From Escherichia phage MN04, in sequence record MT129654.1: a stretch of 64,000 nt of DNA; one strand, 5' to 3'. Numbering within the stretch: position 1 is the stretch's first letter; every line of letters begins with the position of its first letter. The translations under genes were made by a program, and so were the position numbers. The notes beneath the pieces were generated by a model that was not told the DNA's origin, searched no databases, and saw only the letters and a program-made list of their open reading frames with translations. Positions 1 to 29,808 of the stretch are shown piece after piece.

Positions 1-869
1 GCAAGTCCACCTAAACCCATTTGGAAAGCCATGTTTTCAAGAGCCATTTGTCTTGAACGGTTTTCTTTATTGTAAACCGGACCTACAACACTATGCCTGC
101 CTATATCGTTTTGAACTTTTTTAAGGTCTTCTTGGAATAACTTGGAAGCCTCGTCCATTGATATTGCACCCGGGTTTCCTTTAACTTCACGACCTATTTG
201 ATTAGATAATATTTTGTTTATCTGATTCATATCTCTAATAGGTTGTGGTGTAATAAGGTGACCTATACCAATAGTAGGGTATCCTTCGGTATCCCAATAT
301 ACCTTCAGTCTAAGCCCTTCATCACGATGAAGCATGTTTTCTATTGTGAAATTAGGATTATCATCAGGCTTAACTTGGCTTAAATCTAATCCATCCGGAT
401 TAATACCTACATCAGTGTTTGCATCTTGTATTACGTTAGAAGTGGCATCATATCCAACTTCACCACCTCGGTTTAGTGCAGCGGCATCATTACCTAAATA
501 AAGCGGATACTGTCCTGTCGGGTCACTAAAACCTTCGTTTGGATTTGCCTTTTGTTTTGAAGCCGAACCGTATGTACCGAGGACAAGCCCGTTTAATTTC
601 CACTTATCAAGAAAGTGTCCGTAAACTTGTGTACCTGGGACCATACCAGTCATAGCGGTTTGGATACCTGAAACAGAGGCAGAAGATGTAGGCATTAATA
701 CCGACATCCATGGTAAATCTTCTGTACGAAGGCCTTTTACAGGACCTTGTACTTTTTCATATGGATGCATACCCCAGACGCGTACGCGTACTCGGCCTTG
801 TTTGAGTGGGTCCATTCGGTCTTCAACTACACCGACGAACCAACTTAAATTATCAGACATGTTAATCAT
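1..869 (-). CDS. 5: baseplate hub subunit and tail lysozyme gp5, N-terminal portion (gene continues beyond window start)
   Basis: Minus-strand reading from ATG at 869 gives MINMSDNLSWFVGVVEDR... and a T4-lysozyme-like block RDEGLRLKVYWDTEGYPTIGIGHLI; start overlaps gp53 stop (TAATG); T4 order 53-5. Confidence 0.85.
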   Translation of the reverse strand, partial: MINMSDNLSWFVGVVEDRMDPLKQGRVRVRVWGMHPYEKVQGPVKGLRTEDLPWMSVLMPTSSASVSGIQTAMTGMVPGTQVYGHFLDKWKLNGLVLGTYGSASKQKANPNEGFSDPTGQYPLYLGNDAAALNRGGEVGYDATSNVIQDANTDVGINPDGLDLSQVKPDDNPNFTIENMLHRDEGLRLKVYWDTEGYPTIGIGHLITPQPIRDMNQINKILSNQIGREVKGNPGAISMDEASKLFQEDLKKVQNDIGRHSVVGPVYNKENRSRQMALENMAFQMGLGGL

Positions 870-1471
870 TAGAGGGCTTTCTCCATTTCGCGAATAAGAG
901 CAGAAATAAAAGACTCAATATCATTAGGGTCTATAATTTTTATTTCGCGCTTATATTCATTTTTGCGAATAGCATCCTCGTAAATATCTACTGCGGCCAA
1001 TGGGCCTTCGTATTGAGGATAACGTTTTTCTGTATCGCCTTTATCATACCAAGTATATGGATTTTCTGGTGTGTTGACAAGATTCCAGAATTTCTCGCCT
1101 TTTTCGTTTACATGGTAAAGGACCTGGTTTCCACCAGCGGTAGAATATCTTTGGATGGCTGCTTGGTAGGCGGCTTCTTGGCCGGTAATCCATCCATAAT
1201 ACGGGTCGTATATATTATTACACATCAGTAGAACCCAATATAATTGGACATTGCCATAAAGAAGATGGGCTAATTCTTCCGGACGCGGGGCTCCATTGAT
1301 ATAATAAGTTTTTAGTGTATAATTTTTAGCCACTCTATCAAAGTATTCTTTATAATTTCTAAATATATCAGTCATCGGCACGCTCAATACATCGGCATTT
1401 GTTAATGAGCCGGAATCTGGCTTGACTGTTTTTGATTCGTAATCGATAGGATCGAAAAATGAGAAGAGCAT
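869..1471 (-). CDS. 53: baseplate wedge subunit gp53 (assigned by synteny and size, 200 aa)
   Basis: ORF track 200 aa; directly upstream of and translationally coupled to gp5; late promoter upstream. Confidence 0.65.
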   Translation of the reverse strand: MLFSFFDPIDYESKTVKPDSGSLTNADVLSVPMTDIFRNYKEYFDRVAKNYTLKTYYINGAPRPEELAHLLYGNVQLYWVLLMCNNIYDPYYGWITGQEAAYQAAIQRYSTAGGNQVLYHVNEKGEKFWNLVNTPENPYTWYDKGDTEKRYPQYEGPLAAVDIYEDAIRKNEYKREIKIIDPNDIESFISALIREMEKAL

Positions 1472-1483
1472 AGGGCCTCCGAG

Positions 1484-1491
1484 TATAAATA
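1484..1491 (+). promoter_or_regulatory. T4-type late promoter TATAAATA for the gene 4 operon
   Basis: Exact TATAAATA about 27 nt upstream of ATG 1518. Confidence 0.6.
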
Positions 1492-1498
1492 ATATTAA

Positions 1499-1506
1499 TA
1501 TTTATA
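1499..1506 (-). promoter_or_regulatory. T4-type late promoter TATAAATA on minus strand for genes 53-5
   Basis: Plus-strand tatttata is TATAAATA on the minus strand, about 28 nt upstream of the minus-strand ATG at 1471. Confidence 0.6.
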
Positions 1507-1517
1507 AGGAGGCAACT

Positions 1518-1967
1518 ATGGCTTACTCAGGGAAATTTAAACCTACCAACTTACAAAAATATAAAGGTGACTGGAAGAAAATCCAATATCGTTCCTCATG
1601 GGAAGCATGGCTCATGCGTTGGCTTGACAATCATCCTAACGTAGTCCAATGGAACTCTGAAGAGGTAGTTATTCCGTATTTTAGTAATGCTGATGGAAAG
1701 AAACGTCGATATTTTATGGACTTCTGGGTTAAGTTTGATAACGGCCAACAATTCTTTTTTGAAGTCAAACCTTTTAAAGAAACCCATCCTCCAGCGGCTC
1801 CTGCTAAAATGACTACAGCCGCTAAAAAGAGATATATCAACGAACATTATACATGGAGTGTAAATAAAGATAAATGGAAAGCTGCTAAAGCTACAGCAGA
1901 TAAAATGGGAATCAATTTTAGATTGATAACTGAAAACTCACTGAAAAAATTAGGATGGAAAGGATGA
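1518..1967 (+). CDS. 4: head completion protein gp4 (149 aa)
   Basis: ORF with SD aaggagg; size and position match T4 gene 4 (divergent from 53, followed by 2-3-1). Confidence 0.7.
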
Positions 1968-7323: not shown

Positions 7324-7397
7324 GGCCCTGTAGCTGGACGGTCAAGCGAGCGACTCATAATCGCTGGATGGTGGTTCGATTCCACCCAGGGCCACCA
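7324..7397 (+). tRNA. tRNA with anticodon CAU (Met, or Ile2 if lysidine-modified), CCA encoded
   Basis: Acceptor stem GGCCCTG/CAGGGCC, anticodon stem AGCGA/TCGCT with loop CTCATAA, T-arm GGTGG-TTCGATT-CCACC. Confidence 0.8.
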
Positions 7398-7401
7398 ATT
7401 T

Positions 7402-7476
7402 GGATGTGTAGCTCAGTGGTAGAGCAGTTGACTGTTAATCAATTGGTCCATGGTTCGAATCCATGCATGTCCGCCA
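7402..7476 (+). tRNA. tRNA-Asn (anticodon GTT), CCA encoded
   Basis: D-arm GCTCAGTGGTAGAGC, anticodon loop CTGTTAA, T-arm CATGG-TTCGAAT-CCATG, acceptor with two G-U pairs. Confidence 0.75.
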
Positions 7477-7480
7477 AATA

Positions 7481-7556
7481 CGAGGCATAGCTCAGAAGGA
7501 AGAGCAACGGTCTTCTAAACCGTAGGTCGTAGGTTCGATCCCTACTGTCTCGACCA
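7481..7556 (+). tRNA. tRNA-Arg (anticodon TCT), CCA encoded
   Basis: D-arm GCTCAGAAGGAAGAGC, anticodon stem ACGGT/ACCGT with loop CTTCTAA, T-arm GTAGG-TTCGATC-CCTAC; T4 also carries tRNA-Arg(UCU). Confidence 0.75.
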
Positions 7557-7901: not shown

Positions 7902-7909
7902 TATAAATA
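7902..7909 (+). promoter_or_regulatory. late promoter TATAAATA
   Basis: Exact TATAAATA right after the terminator, 27 nt upstream of ATG 7936. Confidence 0.55.
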
Positions 7910-7935
7910 TACAGTAAACTAACTTAGGAAATAAT

Positions 7936-8490
7936 ATGAAACTTTTAAAATATTTGAGTTGGATTCTGTTGGTCCCACTAGATTTTATCTCTATGGTTCT
8001 AGCCGTTATCCTTGCGCCTTTTGTGGTTCCTTTCCACAATAAAAAGACTGGTAAATTGCCGTACGGTTTTGATTGGATGATGACATACGATAATCCAATT
8101 GACGGTGACAAAGGTCATATTAAACGTTGGGCTAAAATCAGGAAAATGCCTGGCGGTGTTTATCTCCAGAGGGTAGCTTGGCTATGGCGAAATAAAGCTT
8201 ATAACTTTGCTTACCATAAACTCGGTCGCGATTGTAGCTCAGAATTCCATTATCGTGGTAATCCTGATGTGGAATCAGGTTCTCCTGATAAAGCTCACCA
8301 TGGTTGGTTGTGGATGTGGAATGATGACGCCTGGGGTGTATTTGCTTCAGTTCCTTATCTTAAGGTCGGTGGAATCACATTTTACCTTCGCGTGTACTGT
8401 GGCTGGAAGCTTAAGAGTCTTTTGTCTCGTAAAATCCCTAAAGCTATGTTAGCCTTCCACGTGAACCCGTTCCGGTTCTACAAGAACTGA
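7936..8490 (+). CDS. membrane protein (184 aa, N-terminal transmembrane helix)
   Basis: ORF flanked on both sides by identical terminator plus late-promoter cassettes. Confidence 0.55.
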   Translation: MKLLKYLSWILLVPLDFISMVLAVILAPFVVPFHNKKTGKLPYGFDWMMTYDNPIDGDKGHIKRWAKIRKMPGGVYLQRVAWLWRNKAYNFAYHKLGRDCSSEFHYRGNPDVESGSPDKAHHGWLWMWNDDAWGVFASVPYLKVGGITFYLRVYCGWKLKSLLSRKIPKAMLAFHVNPFRFYKN

Positions 8491-8495
8491 TTTAC

Positions 8496-8522
8496 GGCCC
8501 TTCCGAAAGGTTGGGCCTTTTT
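8496..8522 (+). terminator. rho-independent terminator (second copy of the cassette)
   Basis: Same hairpin ggccc-ttccgaaaggtt-gggcc plus T-run as at 7872. Confidence 0.7.
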
Positions 8523-8523
8523 G

Positions 8524-8531
8524 TATAAATA
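8524..8531 (+). promoter_or_regulatory. late promoter TATAAATA
   Basis: Exact TATAAATA, 28 nt upstream of ATG 8560. Confidence 0.55.
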
Positions 8532-8559
8532 GATAAGTTAATTAACACAGGAAACAATA

Positions 8560-9177
8560 ATGAAAACTTACAATGAATTTTTGAACGAAAGCGTTCTGAC
8601 TGAAGCCAGCGTGCGCATGACTAAAGATATGTGGCAAGCTGCTTATGATAAAATTTCCGGGACTAAAACCACTACCGAGTTCTTTAAAAACGTTTATGAT
8701 ATGTATGGTTTTGATACTAGTAGCCAGAAAGAATATTACAAAGCTTCCAAAGCTTTTAAAGATATCGTAGCCGGTGGCGCTACTAAGCCTGCTAAACCAG
8801 CTAAAGCTCCTGTTTCTAAACCCGTGGCTCAGACCAAAGTTGCAGCACCGAAACCGACACCTAAAGCAGAGCCTGTAAAAGAAGCTCCTAAACCTAAAAT
8901 CAAGTTCGACACCAGCACTATTGTTAAAAAATATAACCAGCTGGCTTCTTTGGTTTCTGAAATCGAATCCGAAACTAAACAACTCGTTCGAGAATTCAAC
9001 GCCCTTCGTAATGGGCAGCACATTAACAACCTGGATACCCCAGACCTCTATCGTCTTTACCTGACGGTTGAAGGCCTTAAGTATACCCAGCCTATGCACG
9101 AAGAAATTGATAACAAACTTCGTCAAGCCCGCCGCCTTGCAGGTGACGCAGCACAGTTCGAAAAGACCCGTAAATAA
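8560..9177 (+). CDS. internal protein, IPIII-like (205 aa, Lys/Ala/Pro-rich, CTS MKTYNEFLNES)
   Basis: CTS N-terminus; basic AKPAKAP repeats; late promoter upstream. Confidence 0.65.
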   Translation: MKTYNEFLNESVLTEASVRMTKDMWQAAYDKISGTKTTTEFFKNVYDMYGFDTSSQKEYYKASKAFKDIVAGGATKPAKPAKAPVSKPVAQTKVAAPKPTPKAEPVKEAPKPKIKFDTSTIVKKYNQLASLVSEIESETKQLVREFNALRNGQHINNLDTPDLYRLYLTVEGLKYTQPMHEEIDNKLRQARRLAGDAAQFEKTRK

Positions 9178-17145: not shown

Positions 17146-17175
17146 TATAAATACCTCCTATAATCAGGAGGTATT
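17146..17175 (+). promoter_or_regulatory. late promoter TATAAATA fused to an RBS-sequestering hairpin for gene e
   Basis: TATAAATA 17146-17153; hairpin acctcc-tataatc-aggagg places the SD in the 3' arm; same arrangement is known for T4 gene e. Confidence 0.6.
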
Positions 17176-17664
17176 ATGGATATTTTTGATATGTTACGTC
17201 AAGACGAAGGTCTTGATTTAAATCTTTATAAAGACACTGAAGGTTATTGGACTATTGGTATTGGCCAGTTAGTTACCAAGAACCCATCTAAAGATGTTGC
17301 TCGCGCTGAACTTGATAAGCTTATGGGCCGAGTTTGTAATGGTCGTATTACTATGGCTGAAGCTGAACAACTCTTTAATCGTTCAGTGGAAAATGCTCGT
17401 AGAGCTATAATGCGTAATCCTAAATTGAAACCGGTTTATGATGTGCTGGACGAAGTTCGTCGTTGCGCATTGATTAATATGGTCTTCCAAATGGGCGAAG
17501 CTGGTGTAGCAGGATTTACCAACTCTCTGCGTATGCTCCAACAGAAACGTTGGGATGATGCCGCAGTTAACCTGGCGCAGTCTCGTTGGTACAAGCAAAC
17601 CCCGAATCGTGCCAAGCGTGTTATCGCCACTTTTAAAACAGGTACTTGGGCTGCTTATAGATAA
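17176..17664 (+). CDS. e: endolysin (T4 lysozyme e, 162 aa)
   Basis: [32 protein letters not shown]... is near-identical in pattern to T4 lysozyme. Confidence 0.95.
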
Positions 17665-25938: not shown

Positions 25939-26391
25939 ATGATTATCAATTCAAACTCTTGGCACGTTAAATTACACGACCGTTTTTATGACCGTCATTC
26001 TCGACCGCACTCTTTGTGTGCTTATTTCTGGAAAATGGTTTGGGCTTGTTTTGCTTGTGCCATTGTTGCAGGTAGTACGCTTTTTGGATTAACTGTTGCA
26101 GGCGCTGGTGTATTAGAGCATTTCTTTGTATTAAGTACTCCCGTTCTGTTGAGTCTAGGGTTTGTTTTAGGGTTGATTGCAATAGCTCTTATTATTGCTC
26201 TATCCATTGGTTTGGCATTAGGTGCGATGAATTTACACGCGTGGTATGATGCACGTAGAGAAGAAAAGGAATGGCAACGTATTCAAGCTGAGCGTGAAGG
26301 CCGAGAAACTAAAGAAAATATCGTCGTCCAATACATTAAAGCTCGTAAATCTAAGATGTGTCCTGTAATCCACTTCGAGAACAAAGAATGA
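25939..26391 (+). CDS. membrane protein (150 aa)
   Basis: Conserved initiation region; multiple hydrophobic helices. Confidence 0.5.
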   Translation: MIINSNSWHVKLHDRFYDRHSRPHSLCAYFWKMVWACFACAIVAGSTLFGLTVAGAGVLEHFFVLSTPVLLSLGFVLGLIAIALIIALSIGLALGAMNLHAWYDARREEKEWQRIQAEREGRETKENIVVQYIKARKSKMCPVIHFENKE

Positions 26392-27398
26392 GAACTGTTA
26401 TGAAAGGCTACTTCGGTAGCCACCTTTATGGAACAAGTACTCCGGAATCTGATGTCGATTTTAAAGAAATCTTTGTTCCACATCCGCGTGATATTCTGTT
26501 AGGTACGGCTATGAACCATACCAACCTGAACACGAATAACACTGCTTCCAAAAACACTAAAGATGATGTTGACCATGAGCTTTATAGTCTGAAATATTTC
26601 TTTAAACTGGCTGCTGAAGGCGAAACCGTTGCTCTGGATATGCTCCACACTCCGCCTGAAATGGTGGTTAAATCTGATTTACCTGATGTATGGAAATTTA
26701 TCCAAGACAACCGTTCTCGGTTCTATACAACCAACATGAAAGCCTATTTAGGGTACGTCCGTAAGCAAGCTTCTAAATATGGTGTTAAGGGTTCTCGACT
26801 GGCTGCTCTGCGTGGTGTACTGGCTATTGTTAACCAGATTCCTGAACAATGGGTCGATTATCAAGAAGACGGTTCGACTAAGCAACGTCGCACTAAGGTA
26901 GAAGATATCAAACATCGACTCCCTGAAAATGAGTTCTGTGAATGGGTATTCCATAACCATGAGAAAACAGGACCTCAAACGTTCTATACTGTTCTCGGAC
27001 GTAAGTACCAAACCACTTTGTCATTAATCGAGCTCAAGCAATCTCTGAATAAGCTCGATGCGGAATATGGTGAACGCGCTCGTAAAGCTGAAGCTAACGA
27101 AGGTATTGACTGGAAAGCTCTGAGCCATGCTTATCGTGCTGGTTATCAGTTGAAGGAAATCTATCAAACTGGTGACCTCCAATATCCTTTACGTACAGCA
27201 CCGTTTATCCTTGAAATCAAACAAGGGCTTCATGCTTTTAAAGATGTACAGGCCGAACTTGAAGCTATCGTTGATGAAGTCGAAACCAATGCTATCTGGG
27301 CCGCTAAGAACGGCATGCCTGAGAAGGTAGACATGAAGTTCTGGGACAAGTTCGTTGAAGAGGTGTACCTTGACAACCACAACGCTTATTACCGCTAA
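26388..27398 (+). CDS. Pol-beta-superfamily nucleotidyltransferase (336 aa)
   Basis: N-terminal GSHLYGTSTPESDVD fits the GS-x9-13-Dh[DE] NTase signature; ATGA coupling. Confidence 0.6.
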   Translation: MRTVMKGYFGSHLYGTSTPESDVDFKEIFVPHPRDILLGTAMNHTNLNTNNTASKNTKDDVDHELYSLKYFFKLAAEGETVALDMLHTPPEMVVKSDLPDVWKFIQDNRSRFYTTNMKAYLGYVRKQASKYGVKGSRLAALRGVLAIVNQIPEQWVDYQEDGSTKQRRTKVEDIKHRLPENEFCEWVFHNHEKTGPQTFYTVLGRKYQTTLSLIELKQSLNKLDAEYGERARKAEANEGIDWKALSHAYRAGYQLKEIYQTGDLQYPLRTAPFILEIKQGLHAFKDVQAELEAIVDEVETNAIWAAKNGMPEKVDMKFWDKFVEEVYLDNHNAYYR

Positions 27399-27594
27399 AG
27401 AAGAAATTAACGTCTTTCTATCGTATGGAAGACCTCATAAAACTCGACGTTGGTATCTTGAAGCTGTCTGTAAAGAAACCGGACGTCGAGTCAATGTCAA
27501 ATACGTATGTAAACCGTCTCCCAAACAAACTCGCAGGTTTGTTAACTGGGCTATCAATACTATAAGATTCCATAATTTTTGGAGTGCAATATAA
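27355..27594 (+). CDS. uncertain small ORF (79 aa, non-ATG start in track)
   Basis: ORF track only; overlaps NTase 3' end; no convincing RBS. Confidence 0.25.
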   Translation: MKRCTLTTTTLITAKEEINVFLSYGRPHKTRRWYLEAVCKETGRRVNVKYVCKPSPKQTRRFVNWAINTIRFHNFWSAI

Positions 27595-27616
27595 GGGCCG
27601 TATGGCCCTTTTTTTG
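27594..27616 (+). terminator. rho-independent terminator at a convergent gene junction
   Basis: Hairpin gggcc-gtat-ggccc followed by TTTTTTT. Confidence 0.7.
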
Positions 27617-27617
27617 T

Positions 27618-28373
27618 TTACGAAGTCACTGTTTGTTCGGCTACTAACAATGCAGAGGTTATTGTAAAGTTGCCGCCATTTGGCGTAACAGTTATAGCTG
27701 TACCATTGGTTGCCATTGGCCCATCTTTATCAATGCTAAAGAACGTCGTAAAAGACAAAATATCTGTAGCATTTTCTGGACGGTTCTGTATATAGGAGTT
27801 TCCGTTGGTTCCAACGAAATTTAATGTTATACTTCGAGCTTGCGAGACTCCTGTAAAATTACCAATAAGGTTGAGTTTAAACATTAGGCTTCTGTCTTGC
27901 TTATATGGCCACATCTTATCATCAGCGGTTCTAAAAAACGGAGATAGAGTCCCTGCTGTCGGCGGAATCCCCTTTAAAATACTAATTATGTTTGAAGCCG
28001 CACCATTAGTTAATAGAACGTTTATACCACTCCAAAACACTTCTGATTTTCTTCTCTTTCCTGCTGTTGCAGTCAAAAAATCATCTACTGTTCCACTATT
28101 ACCCTCATCAATCCATAATTGGTATGAAGACTTTCCTGGTTCACCTTGAACTCCCGGGTCGCCAGGATTTCCCGGGTCACCTTTATCACCTTTTTGTCCA
28201 GGAGGTCCTGGAATCTGGGTAACTGATTTTGACATCGTTTGAAAGAACCGTTCGCTGTTATCAGTTACGGTATTAGGAAGGACTACCGTTGAACCAAAAA
28301 GATGCCAGTTATCGTCTAATGCTAACTGGACCTTCTCGTTCAATTCATCGATGGTTTTTGCTGATAAAATCAT
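27618..28373 (-). CDS. collagen-like repeat protein, probable late structural or fibre-like protein (251 aa)
   Basis: Eight G-X-Y triplets PGPPGQKGDKGDPGNPGDPGVQGEPG then a Asn/Thr/Gly-rich C-terminal domain; strong SD AAGGAG and late promoter on the minus strand. Confidence 0.65.
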   Translation of the reverse strand: MILSAKTIDELNEKVQLALDDNWHLFGSTVVLPNTVTDNSERFFQTMSKSVTQIPGPPGQKGDKGDPGNPGDPGVQGEPGKSSYQLWIDEGNSGTVDDFLTATAGKRRKSEVFWSGINVLLTNGAASNIISILKGIPPTAGTLSPFFRTADDKMWPYKQDRSLMFKLNLIGNFTGVSQARSITLNFVGTNGNSYIQNRPENATDILSFTTFFSIDKDGPMATNGTAITVTPNGGNFTITSALLVAEQTVTS

Positions 28374-28395
28374 AAACCTTCTCCTTTAAATAAAA

Positions 28396-28403
28396 TATTT
28401 ATA
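28396..28403 (-). promoter_or_regulatory. late promoter TATAAATA (minus strand) for the collagen-like gene
   Basis: Plus-strand tatttata is TATAAATA on minus, about 22 nt upstream of ATG at 28373. Confidence 0.55.
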
Positions 28404-28409
28404 AAAGTA

Positions 28410-28450
28410 GTTTACACTTTCGTAGAGCATGTTATTATGGACCTATCAAA
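28410..28450 (+). promoter_or_regulatory. T4-type early promoter cassette
   Basis: GTTTAC 28410-28415, -10 TATTAT 28433-28438, then ggacctatcaaa. Confidence 0.55.
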
Positions 28451-28475
28451 TCTACTGAGTGAAACGGAGAATATA

Positions 28476-29456
28476 ATGTTAACTATCAAAATCAACAAAG
28501 GTATCTATCGCGGTAATGAAATCTCTGGTACGTTCATGAGTTCAGGTAAAACCTGGTTCCCTAATAAAATTCATGAATCCGAAGCTCATCTCGGTGATGG
28601 CAAGGTATTTGTACAGATTGATGGTGTTGAACGTGGTGTATGGGTGTTCAAATGTGACGTTGAAATGGAAGGTGTTGAAGCTCCTGCAATGGTTACTGAA
28701 TCCGCTGAAGAAATGAAACATCGCATCAACAAACGTTTTAAAGTAATGAACATGATGACTAACGGAATCATTGATGGTAAAATTCGTTCCCTTATCATCT
28801 CTGGTGCCGCAGGTATCGGTAAAACGTATTCTTTGGATAAAGCATTACAAAATGCCCACGAAAATGAAACTATCGAATATAAATCAATCAACGGAAAGAT
28901 TAGTGGAATCGGTCTTTACGAGCAGCTTTGGAATAACCGCGGCCCTAATAGTGTTCTTCTTATTGATGATGTTGATGTATTCTCTGACATGGATATCCTG
29001 AACCTTCTTAAAGCTGCATTGGATACCGGTGAGAAACGTAAGGTGTGCTGGAGCACTTCAAGTTCTTATCTCGATGATAAAAATATCGATAAAGAATTCG
29101 AATACGAAGGCACCATCGTGTTCATCACCAACGTTGATATTGATCGTGAATTAGAGCGTGGAACTAAACTTGCTCCACACCTCCAAGCTTTAGTATCTCG
29201 TTCAGTTTACTTAGACCTCGGAGTTCACTCGAATGAAGAGATTATGGTTCGTGTTGAAGACGTTATCCTGTCCACCGATATGATGCAAAACCGAGGTCTG
29301 ACTGATGCTGAGACTTATCAAGCTCTAGCATGGATGAAGGCCAATGTATCTCGTCTTCGTAACGTATCATTACGTACAGCTCTTTATCTGGCGGACTTCA
29401 TTGCCACCGATAAAAATGACTGGAGCGAAATCGCCGAAGTTACACTTCTGAAATAA
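28476..29456 (+). CDS. AAA+/P-loop ATPase (326 aa)
   Basis: Walker A GAAGIGKTYS and Walker B LLIDDVD; ATG 28476 with SD ggag. Confidence 0.6.
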   Translation: MLTIKINKGIYRGNEISGTFMSSGKTWFPNKIHESEAHLGDGKVFVQIDGVERGVWVFKCDVEMEGVEAPAMVTESAEEMKHRINKRFKVMNMMTNGIIDGKIRSLIISGAAGIGKTYSLDKALQNAHENETIEYKSINGKISGIGLYEQLWNNRGPNSVLLIDDVDVFSDMDILNLLKAALDTGEKRKVCWSTSSSYLDDKNIDKEFEYEGTIVFITNVDIDRELERGTKLAPHLQALVSRSVYLDLGVHSNEEIMVRVEDVILSTDMMQNRGLTDAETYQALAWMKANVSRLRNVSLRTALYLADFIATDKNDWSEIAEVTLLK

Positions 29457-29466
29457 AGGTGAAATT

Positions 29467-29808
29467 ATGTTCGAACAATTTATTTACAATCTTTTTAATG
29501 CAGGCCAAACTTTTTCCAAAGCCATGAAACAGTCCGTCGAGGACTATGATAAAGAAGTTATCGACGGATATACCAATAGAGTTTATAAAACGGATTGTGA
29601 AGAAGGAGACTACAGGAGACTGCTCTTGGCAGCGAAGACCCAAGCCTTAATAAATCTAGACCGTAAGCAGGTTAAGTTGGCAGGCGACTTCAGAGATGAA
29701 CTCTGTGCCATCAGGAACGAATACCTTATTCGTATTAAACACCAACGGAAAGAGAACACACAATCCGCCTGGTTTAGTGGGCAAGCCGGTGAAAAAAGTT
29801 TTTATTAG
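29467..29808 (+). CDS. hypothetical protein (113 aa)
   Basis: ORF with SD aaggtg. Confidence 0.45.
   Translation: MFEQFIYNLFNAGQTFSKAMKQSVEDYDKEVIDGYTNRVYKTDCEEGDYRRLLLAAKTQALINLDRKQVKLAGDFRDELCAIRNEYLIRIKHQRKENTQSAWFSGQAGEKSFY

Follow-up and report, generated by a model that had tools for sequence, protein, structure and literature searches.

What does a T4-like phage make from a single gene that is read against the direction of a whole early-gene block? This question is raised by a 64,000-nucleotide stretch of the genome of Escherichia phage MN04 (sequence record MT129654.1; called the window here, at its full length), a T4-like phage of the Dhakavirus group in which a gene for a 251-residue protein stands alone among the nrdC early genes of a Straboviridae genome. 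An earlier note on this DNA, made from the letters alone, had described a minus-strand collagen-repeat gene with its own late promoter motif (TATAAATA) and Shine-Dalgarno sequence, embedded in an early-gene block, and each of these elements was confirmed at its position. The DNA segments that matter for the argument are the following.

27618–28373, minus strand: coding sequence of 251 residues with an ATG start (stop codon 27618–27620), from the open reading frame call and its translation
28396–28403, minus strand: T4-type late promoter motif TATAAATA, 22 nucleotides 5' of the ATG
28381–28386, minus strand: Shine-Dalgarno sequence AAGGAG, 7 nucleotides ahead of the ATG
28209–28373, minus strand: DUF1737-type alpha/beta domain, residues 1–55, putative virion (capsid) anchor (Pfam, hhalign and AlphaFold2 model)
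28128–28208, minus strand: collagen-like stalk of nine uninterrupted Gly-X-Y triplets, residues 56–82
28059–28127, minus strand: two-helix neck with the motif SxYQLWxxxGNxGTxxDFL, residues 83–105 (GKSSYQLWIDEGNSGTVDDFL from G80)
27621–28058, minus strand: Sf6-type tail-needle knob domain (TNF/C1q-like jelly roll), residues 106–251
27593–27610, both strands: GC-rich hairpin AAGGGCC-GTAT-GGCCCTT with a 7-bp stem, between convergent stop codons

The protein is best seen as a new architecture, in which a DUF1737 anchor is joined to a collagen stalk, a neck and an Sf6 knob, among the optional fibres and decoration proteins already known from virions. We read it as a late, virion-attached and capsid-borne fibre, and give this reading a probability of about 0.5. 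The overall interpretation offered by the earlier note, an acquired late module for an accessory fibre, whisker, decoration protein or surface-acting factor, thus turned out to be broadly right and is partly supported. On account of its conservation, a chance open reading frame was rejected. The protein is 97% identical to the ORF96 protein of Escherichia phage C6 and 84–80% identical to its counterparts in Gaprivervirus RZ and Dhakavirus AnYang.

The identification of the N-terminal domain is the main new point about this protein. Judged from profile comparisons, residues 1–55 are homologous to the DUF1737 domain: alignment by hhalign of the N-terminal family with DUF1737, including gp84 of phage phi24B, gave 99.1% (E 1.4e-18; 50 of 55 columns), and the RB43-type and P0040 members of the family exceed the 24-bit cut-off of Pfam PF08410 (26.0 and 26.2 bits, respectively). 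When a profile of the N-termini was run against 1.8 billion proteins, it led to small proteins that Pfam in turn assigns clearly to DUF1737. The AlphaFold2 model of this segment has a beta-alpha-beta-beta layout (strands 2–5, 30–32 and 42–49; helix 8–20) with a predicted local distance difference test score (pLDDT) of ~80. A Foldseek search with the isolated N-terminal model against a PDB set without a DUF1737 chain returned no significant match, only generic alpha/beta domains (best E 0.17), and the hidden Markov model of the N-terminal family found only chance coiled-coil matches among the PDB sequences.

A lead to the role of this domain comes from work on the Shiga toxin phage phi24B, posted on bioRxiv as a preprint in April 2026: from electron cryomicroscopy and proteomics, the NanS-p esterase gp84 is reported to bind the capsid through its DUF1737 domain. 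There, the domain consists of one helix and three antiparallel strands, sits as a hexamer over the central pore of face-centre hexons, and inserts a 'tooth', Tyr42 of the beta2-beta3 loop, between helices of the capsid protein. Since the phi24B domain binds the capsid, residues 1–55 of the MN04 protein are a candidate capsid anchor. A Tyr or Phe is present in the Tyr42 loop of the copies from fHe-Yen9-01, of the PEi20-like metagenomic protein P0009 and of RB43-type phages.

The collagen-like stalk that follows had been credited with eight Gly-X-Y triplets; the actual number is nine, uninterrupted, in a tract rich in Pro and charged residues that would measure ~8 nm if triple-helical. Because the tract is short, it scores 22.9 with the Pfam collagen model PF01391, below the cut-off of 27.2. 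The number of triplets varies among homologs, from none in RB43 and Carvaje and six in RZ to 8–9 in Dhakaviruses, 10–14 in PEi20-like phages and fHe-Yen9-01, and 22 in a variant from a metagenome that has nearly the same N-terminus as the protein of the window. Tandem Repeats Finder detected no repeat in the DNA of the collagen tract, so that a change in triplet number is not visible as a simple array in this copy. Beyond the stalk lies the neck, whose motif SSYQLWIDEGNSGTVDDFL is contained in GKSSYQLW..., the latter beginning at G80, and whose helices span residues 83–89 and 96–104 in the AlphaFold2 model. It is kept in all full-length homologs that bear DUF1737, occurs in three copies in P0012 and in more in P0040, and may well serve in trimerisation.

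The C-terminal domain is a knob of the type found on the tail needle of phage Sf6. It matches Pfam PF16532 (Phage_tail_NK) with 111.4 bits against a cut-off of 27 (5e-32; residues 103–247), phrog_1030 with 8e-64, and the PDB entries 3RWN (E 9.6e-31) and 4K6B (5e-30), the PDB match covering residues 93–247 only. Its AlphaFold2 model has pLDDT values of 85–96 and was aligned by Foldseek with 3RWN at a template modelling (TM) score of 0.87, with a root mean square deviation of 2.2 Å over 153 columns; remote Foldseek matches include PRD1 P5, ExsFA, C1q-like proteins, the lectins BC2L-C and PLTL, and the knob of the phi812 central spike. Domains of this kind form homotrimers whose ligand (glutamate) pockets lie where subunits meet. 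Across the knob family, 24 core positions are invariant, as are the motifs ATNG, AEQ and others. The structure prediction that the earlier note had proposed for stalk and knob was confident for the knob of a single chain, while the stalk stays below a pLDDT of 50 in the monomer model, as expected. The same note had characterised the last 170 residues as Asn/Thr/Gly-rich and of the kind seen in fibre or receptor-binding domains. The bias is there in moderate form (T 12%, S 9%, G 9%, N 8%), but it belongs to a recognisable domain and not to a low-complexity tail; the fibre-like character agrees with a trimeric-fibre build with a distal knob, and the Sf6 needle-knob domain is its more specific identity. 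Knob homologs 'outside' the needle proteins were already described by Leavitt et al. (2013) in large T4-like phages including RB43, with N-terminal extensions and of unknown function. RefSeq and PHROGs label such proteins 'tail needle knob', a label that names one domain, not the function.

Anchor and knob have different histories. Compared with AnYang, a phage of the same genus, the MN04 protein is 98% identical in the anchor, 93% in the collagen tract and 100% in the neck, and only 68% in the knob; compared with RZ, from a different genus, the corresponding values are 78%, 59%, 78% and 92%, and the DNA alignment has a breakpoint near codon 112. From these identities, the anchor follows the phage genus and the knob has been exchanged between lineages, which bears out the C-terminal variability that the earlier note had asked about across related phages. 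A lineage-bound proximal part joined to an exchanged distal part is a classic signature of virion fibres that meet a variable ligand. Two knob proteins from Enterobacter and metagenomic contigs (P0024 and P0027) begin with another short N-terminus (MVAATTGVAGVIYGRTLVSQKTGKK...) and continue with long collagen tracts; since their N-terminus differs, collagen-stalked Sf6 knobs arose on at least two different anchors.

When would such a protein be made? By number, the late promoter motif TATAAATA is not enriched in the window, with nine copies on both strands of the 64 kb versus 7.1 ± 2.3 in shuffled sequences. Seven of the nine, however, stand 22–31 nucleotides 5' of a Shine-Dalgarno sequence and ATG that open a reading frame of at least 77 residues, and the frames behind them include canonical T4 late genes, namely those for a gp53-like baseplate wedge protein, a gp4-like head-closure protein and the endolysin. 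The gap between promoter and ATG is 22 nucleotides for the 251-residue gene and 22–28 nucleotides for the known late genes of the window. The motif likewise precedes the orthologs of C6, AnYang, Tegunavirus fHe-Yen9-01 and Kanagawavirus PEi20; the RB43 ortholog has the variant CATAAATA, and the RZ ortholog lacks a canonical copy. T4-type late genes have TATAAATA at the −10 position and depend on gp55 and gp33 for their transcription. From the placement of the motif and its conservation, late expression of the 251-residue gene is well predicted.

Copies of TATAAATA elsewhere in the window deserve mention in their own right. Two stand back to back at 1484–1491 (plus strand) and 1499–1506 (minus strand), forming a divergent late promoter pair for the gp4-like head-closure gene (1518–1967, plus strand) and the gp53-like baseplate wedge gene (869–1471, minus strand). 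Further copies, within 7902–9177 and 17146–17664, precede the ATG of three plus-strand genes by 22–28 nucleotides: those of phrog_2143 (7936–8490) and phrog_2280 (8560–9177), and the endolysin gene (17176–17664). The genes of phrog_2143 and phrog_2280 have no assigned function, and the motif in front of them makes their products candidate late proteins inside the 'early' strand. As to the strong plus-strand bias to which the earlier note had drawn attention between 1500 and 64000, only two minus-strand reading frames of the whole 64 kb belong to recognised families, the 251-residue gene and the gp53-like gene; four other minus-strand frames of at least 100 residues gave no PHROG match. Three tRNA genes (Met-CAT, Asn-GTT and Arg-TCT) cluster at 7324–7556 on the plus strand.

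On its 3' side, the gene runs towards the nrdC.11 operon, and the hairpin at 27593–27610 sits in the 23-nucleotide gap that separates the convergent stop codons. Folding energies are −15.5 kcal/mol for the plus-strand RNA and −12.9 kcal/mol for the minus-strand RNA (z ~−3). A clean T-run follows the hairpin on the plus strand only, the minus-strand tail being UUAUAUUG; the hairpin hence serves mainly to terminate the nrdC.11 operon and is less effective for the 251-residue gene, whose transcript probably ends there. The terminator that the earlier note took to be common to both convergent units is thus upheld by its position, but only with this asymmetry. Hairpins flanked by an A-run and a T-run lie 3' of the homologous genes in C6, RZ, fHe-Yen9-01, PEi20 and RB43; the copies of AnYang and Carvaje likewise end at GC-rich hairpins, that of AnYang without the flanking runs.

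Where on the virion such a protein might sit is suggested by its relatives. In the siphophage Carvaje, a full DUF1737-neck-knob gene directly follows terL, the gene for the large terminase subunit, and precedes the portal gene. On a related metagenomic contig, the same slot between terL and portal is taken by P0041, which has two DUF1737 copies and a different distal part; this protein (loci L015 10001–11563 and L016 7651–9213) is 520 residues long, and its two DUF1737-type domains stand in tandem ahead of W-rich repeats (phrog_19976) and a C-terminal domain of another kind. Aeromonas phage 31 encodes a knob protein with a different N-terminus between gp23 (major capsid protein) and gp24 (vertex protein). 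Two knob-only homologs from Ackermannviridae are linked to particles: ORF169 of LIMEstone1 is annotated as a 'confirmed structural protein', and gp119 of Sajous1 was detected in CsCl-purified virions.

The mechanism that we propose on this basis would begin with an optional late cassette, expressed from its own TATAAATA promoter, whose product would be a homotrimeric accessory fibre that joins the virion, most probably at the head. The DUF1737 domain would dock the protein, by homology to phi24B gp84 at the pore of capsid hexons; the short, length-variable collagen triple helix would act as a spacer, and the two-helix neck would probably keep the three chains in register. At the tip, the Sf6-type TNF-like knob would be an exchangeable binder of a ligand on host cells or in their surroundings. 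The role may resemble that of Hoc, SPP1 gp12 or the phi29 head fibres, i.e., a non-essential adhesin that raises encounter or retention and does not trigger infection. More tentatively, and short of even odds, these proteins may constitute a third class of T4-type head decoration besides Hoc and Soc: trimeric, collagen-stalked, lectin-like fibres docked via DUF1737 on the pores of gp23 hexons, where they would share or compete for the Hoc site, with knobs changed by swapping and stalks by gain or loss of triplets, and mediating adhesion of the capsid to host envelopes, mucus or particles. Among the accessory fibre, whisker and decoration roles that the earlier note had listed, the DUF1737 N-terminus makes decoration the best supported one; nothing specific speaks for a whisker, and RB43, which carries a homolog, has its own wac.

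Several observations weigh against a capsid location. Residues 1–55 of this very copy reach only 18.1 bits with PF08410 (E 2.5e-3), under the 24-bit cut-off, and the loop aligned to Tyr42 reads NTVTDNS here and has no aromatic residue, the alignment of this loop being uncertain. The anchor of the siphophage Carvaje is 40% identical to that of the window and thereby as close to it as the RB43 or PEi20 anchors are, which speaks against close co-evolution with a single capsid protein. That DUF1737 binds capsids is known from one preprint and from a very different capsid, that of a T=9 podophage, and a literature search yielded no proteomic or functional paper on any DUF1737-bearing member of the family. 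Moreover, the carriers C6 and AnYang encode a 282-residue Hoc, a protein that occupies the hexon centre in T4 according to the T4 annotation.

That Hoc already holds the hexon centres of T4-type heads in phages that carry the gene is also what lends some weight to an accessory fibre attached elsewhere, on a six-fold part of the tail, neck or baseplate, with DUF1737 as a general ring-docking or oligomerisation module and a knob that aids adsorption near the tail. The only characterised setting of the knob is the tail tip of P22-like phages, and the collagen and neck region weakly matches many PHROG 'tail fiber' families. We nevertheless regard such a location as unlikely, though it is the strongest competitor, since the sole structural data on DUF1737 place the domain on capsid hexons, the gene adjoins terminase, portal or capsid genes and not tail genes in other phages, and no recognised baseplate- or collar-binding domain is present in the protein. 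A further step down in probability is a soluble, non-virion product: a late trimeric lectin-like factor released at lysis that would coat host surfaces or debris, for instance by masking receptors against unproductive adsorption of progeny or against superinfection. The isolation of the gene from all structural modules in T4-like genomes, the soluble TNF-like lectins BC2L-C and PLTL among the remote fold matches, and the fact that phi24B gp84 beyond its DUF1737 domain was not seen on the capsid and is proposed to be cleaved off would all fit. Against it stand the knob-only homologs found in purified virions and the combination of conserved anchor and swappable tip that is typical of virion fibres; an N-terminal hydrophobic stretch resembling a signal peptide is not obvious by eye, and there is no family-specific evidence of a free form.

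Two readings can be set aside with much more confidence, and together they take up only a very small part of our expectation. If the protein were literally a tail needle or the plug of a tail tip, as its RefSeq name suggests, this would account for the strong homology of residues 106–247 to the needle knobs of Sf6 gp9 and HS1; this homology, however, is limited to the knob, the N-terminus consists of DUF1737 and then collagen in place of a long coiled coil, and the genome is that of a T4-like myovirus in which the gene is unlinked to tail genes. The tip of the T4 tail is formed by a spike of the gp5/gp27 type. Lacking a needle N-terminus and coiled coil, a podophage tail context and any link to tail genes, the literal needle was rejected as highly improbable. 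Slightly less probable again is a decaying remnant without a current role: most close relatives manage without the gene, yet more than 40 phage records, from at least five Straboviridae genera and one siphophage, keep the frame intact, promoter, Shine-Dalgarno sequence and terminator are conserved, and the 24 invariant positions of the knob are maintained. The capsid-borne fibre remains our preferred reading.

The presence of Hoc in carrier phages raised the idea that the gene and Hoc exclude each other, which was rejected because no clean pattern emerged: C6 and AnYang carry both, hoc of RB43 is fragmentary, and IME08, without the gene, has two Hoc-like genes. In RB43 (NC_007023 142397–143855; L017 24398–25856), hoc is annotated as two tiny open reading frames of 61 and 47 residues after two other short ones, which suggests that this carrier of the DUF1737-knob protein has a degenerate Hoc gene. 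IME08 (NC_014260 108415–109602; L021 1916–3103) encodes a different collagen-like protein of 395 residues on the late strand, right after a duplicated gene 24, with a Pfam Collagen match of 4e-29, about five Gly-X-Y blocks, a CBM5/12-like insert that the insert of P0027 resembles, and a distal domain of 160 residues. This distal domain, looked at as a possible reciprocal alternative to the 251-residue protein, was found in 13 records only (IME08 and Certrevirus-like phages). C6 and AnYang lack the IME08 protein, so that different collagen-stalked proteins occur sporadically among Dhakaviruses.

The surroundings of the gene show how it is inserted. The region 26300–29500 is 97% identical to phage C6, its flanks are 92–96% identical to AnYang, IME08, JS10 and others, and both neighbours, the nucleotidyltransferase gene nrdC.11 (26358–27398) and the AAA-type gene nrdC.10, are on the plus strand. 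Three further features belong to this arrangement.

27399–28409: approximate insertion of ~1 kb relative to IME08, comprising the DUF7279 frame, the hairpin, the 251-residue gene and the late promoter (from the alignment of window, IME08 and AnYang)
27355–27594, plus strand: small DUF7279 open reading frame between nrdC.11 and the hairpin (phrog_8921, E 4e-36)
28411–28438, plus strand: sigma-70-like early promoter TTTACA-16-TATTAT with an upstream TG, before nrdC.10

When the three sequences are aligned, the stop codon of nrdC.11 in IME08 is followed in turn by a terminator hairpin of its own, the same early promoter (GTTTACAC...TATTAT) and nrdC.10. The insertion hence lies between an existing terminator and promoter and disturbs neither flank. 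IME08, Dhakaviruses of the JS10 type and most relatives pass directly from nrdC.11 to nrdC.10 without the 251-residue gene, the cassette is present in C6 and AnYang, and copies of at least 80% identity were found in only ~12 records; the presence/absence comparison suggested by the earlier note thus shows an optional gene. Its view of the gene as an independently acquired, moron-like late module gains from this indel between collinear genomes and from the late-type promoter and terminator, but not from base composition, because the G+C content of the gene (40.6%) does not deviate from that of the window (39.1%). Base composition thus gives no hint of a foreign source, and if the gene was acquired, this happened long ago or from related phages. 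A lone opposite-strand gene at or near nrdC.11 is also present in Gaprivervirus RZ, Kanagawavirus PEi20, Pseudotevenvirus RB43 (ORF128w) and a metagenomic T4-like contig, while the copy of Tegunavirus fHe-Yen9-01 lies a few genes beyond nrdC.11 and adjoins rI. When IMG/VR was scanned with the N-terminal profile, no more than three genomes came up, all of them known beforehand (PEi20, CfP1 and fHe-Yen9-01).

The DUF7279 frame is present in the window and in C6, apparently also in RZ as judged from flanking sequence, and absent from AnYang and IME08; this patchy presence points to a second indel at the same spot. The TTG listed as its start lies inside nrdC.11, and the true start is probably further downstream. 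For nrdC.10 (listed at 28437–29456, plus strand), the true start is probably the ATG at 28476, which has a Shine-Dalgarno sequence (GGAG) and agrees with the PHROG alignment from residue 14 and with the C6 annotation; this start would leave a 102-nucleotide intergenic region with divergent promoters, the late one on the minus strand and the sigma-70-like one on the plus strand.

Few viruses have been studied as thoroughly as the T4-like phages, which also serve as a major platform in display and phage therapy, and their heads are thought to bear only Hoc and Soc as accessories. If the head-fibre reading is true, an optional adhesin that is widespread and has exchangeable tips has gone unnoticed, under the wrong RefSeq label 'tail needle knob'; from a single podophage case, DUF1737 would grow into a general capsid-docking module for use on T4-type capsids; and anchor, collagen spacer and trimeric knob would make a compact natural scaffold for capsid display. 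Should the protein instead be tail-borne or soluble, it would be a clear case of the Sf6 knob domain shuffling across podo-, sipho- and myophages. The identification of the anchor yields a specific and cheaply testable prediction about T4-type heads.

Among known systems, the needle knobs of Sf6 gp9 and HS1 (3RWN, 4K6B, PF16532) are homologous to the C-terminal 145 residues (E 1e-30, ~39% identity, TM 0.87) and likewise terminate a fibrous trimeric protein. The remainder of the 251-residue protein is unrelated to them, having neither the tail-binding N-terminus of the needle nor its long coiled coil, and it comes from a myovirus gene unlinked to tail genes. T4 Hoc and the phi29 gp8.5 head fibres, described in a review as non-essential, capsid-displayed late adhesins, would be alike in function only: their folds are others (an Ig-like monomer and a helix-turn-helix supercoil, respectively), and Hoc coexists with the protein in carrier phages. 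phi24B gp84 shares a homologous N-terminal domain of ~55 residues with the same predicted beta-alpha-beta-beta layout, which likewise leads a larger late protein. The cargo here is a collagen stalk and a TNF-like knob and not an esterase, however, Tyr42 is not conserved in this copy, and the capsid is a prolate one of the T4 type and not T=9, binding to it being proposed by homology. PRD1 P5 (PDB 1YQ8) matches the fold of the TNF-like knob, and its overall design is like the one proposed here, an N-terminal part for capsid attachment being reportedly joined by a short collagen-like shaft to a trimeric TNF-like knob at the C-terminus; it differs in its place at the five-fold vertices of a tailless, membrane-containing phage and in a knob identity of ~9%. 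SPP1 gp12 is presumably a protein of ~64 residues with neither a distal globular knob nor a DUF1737 domain. It is nonetheless to this auxiliary collagen-like trimer, which according to a review stands at the quasi-6-fold centres of hexons, that the working mode proposed for the 251-residue protein may be likened.

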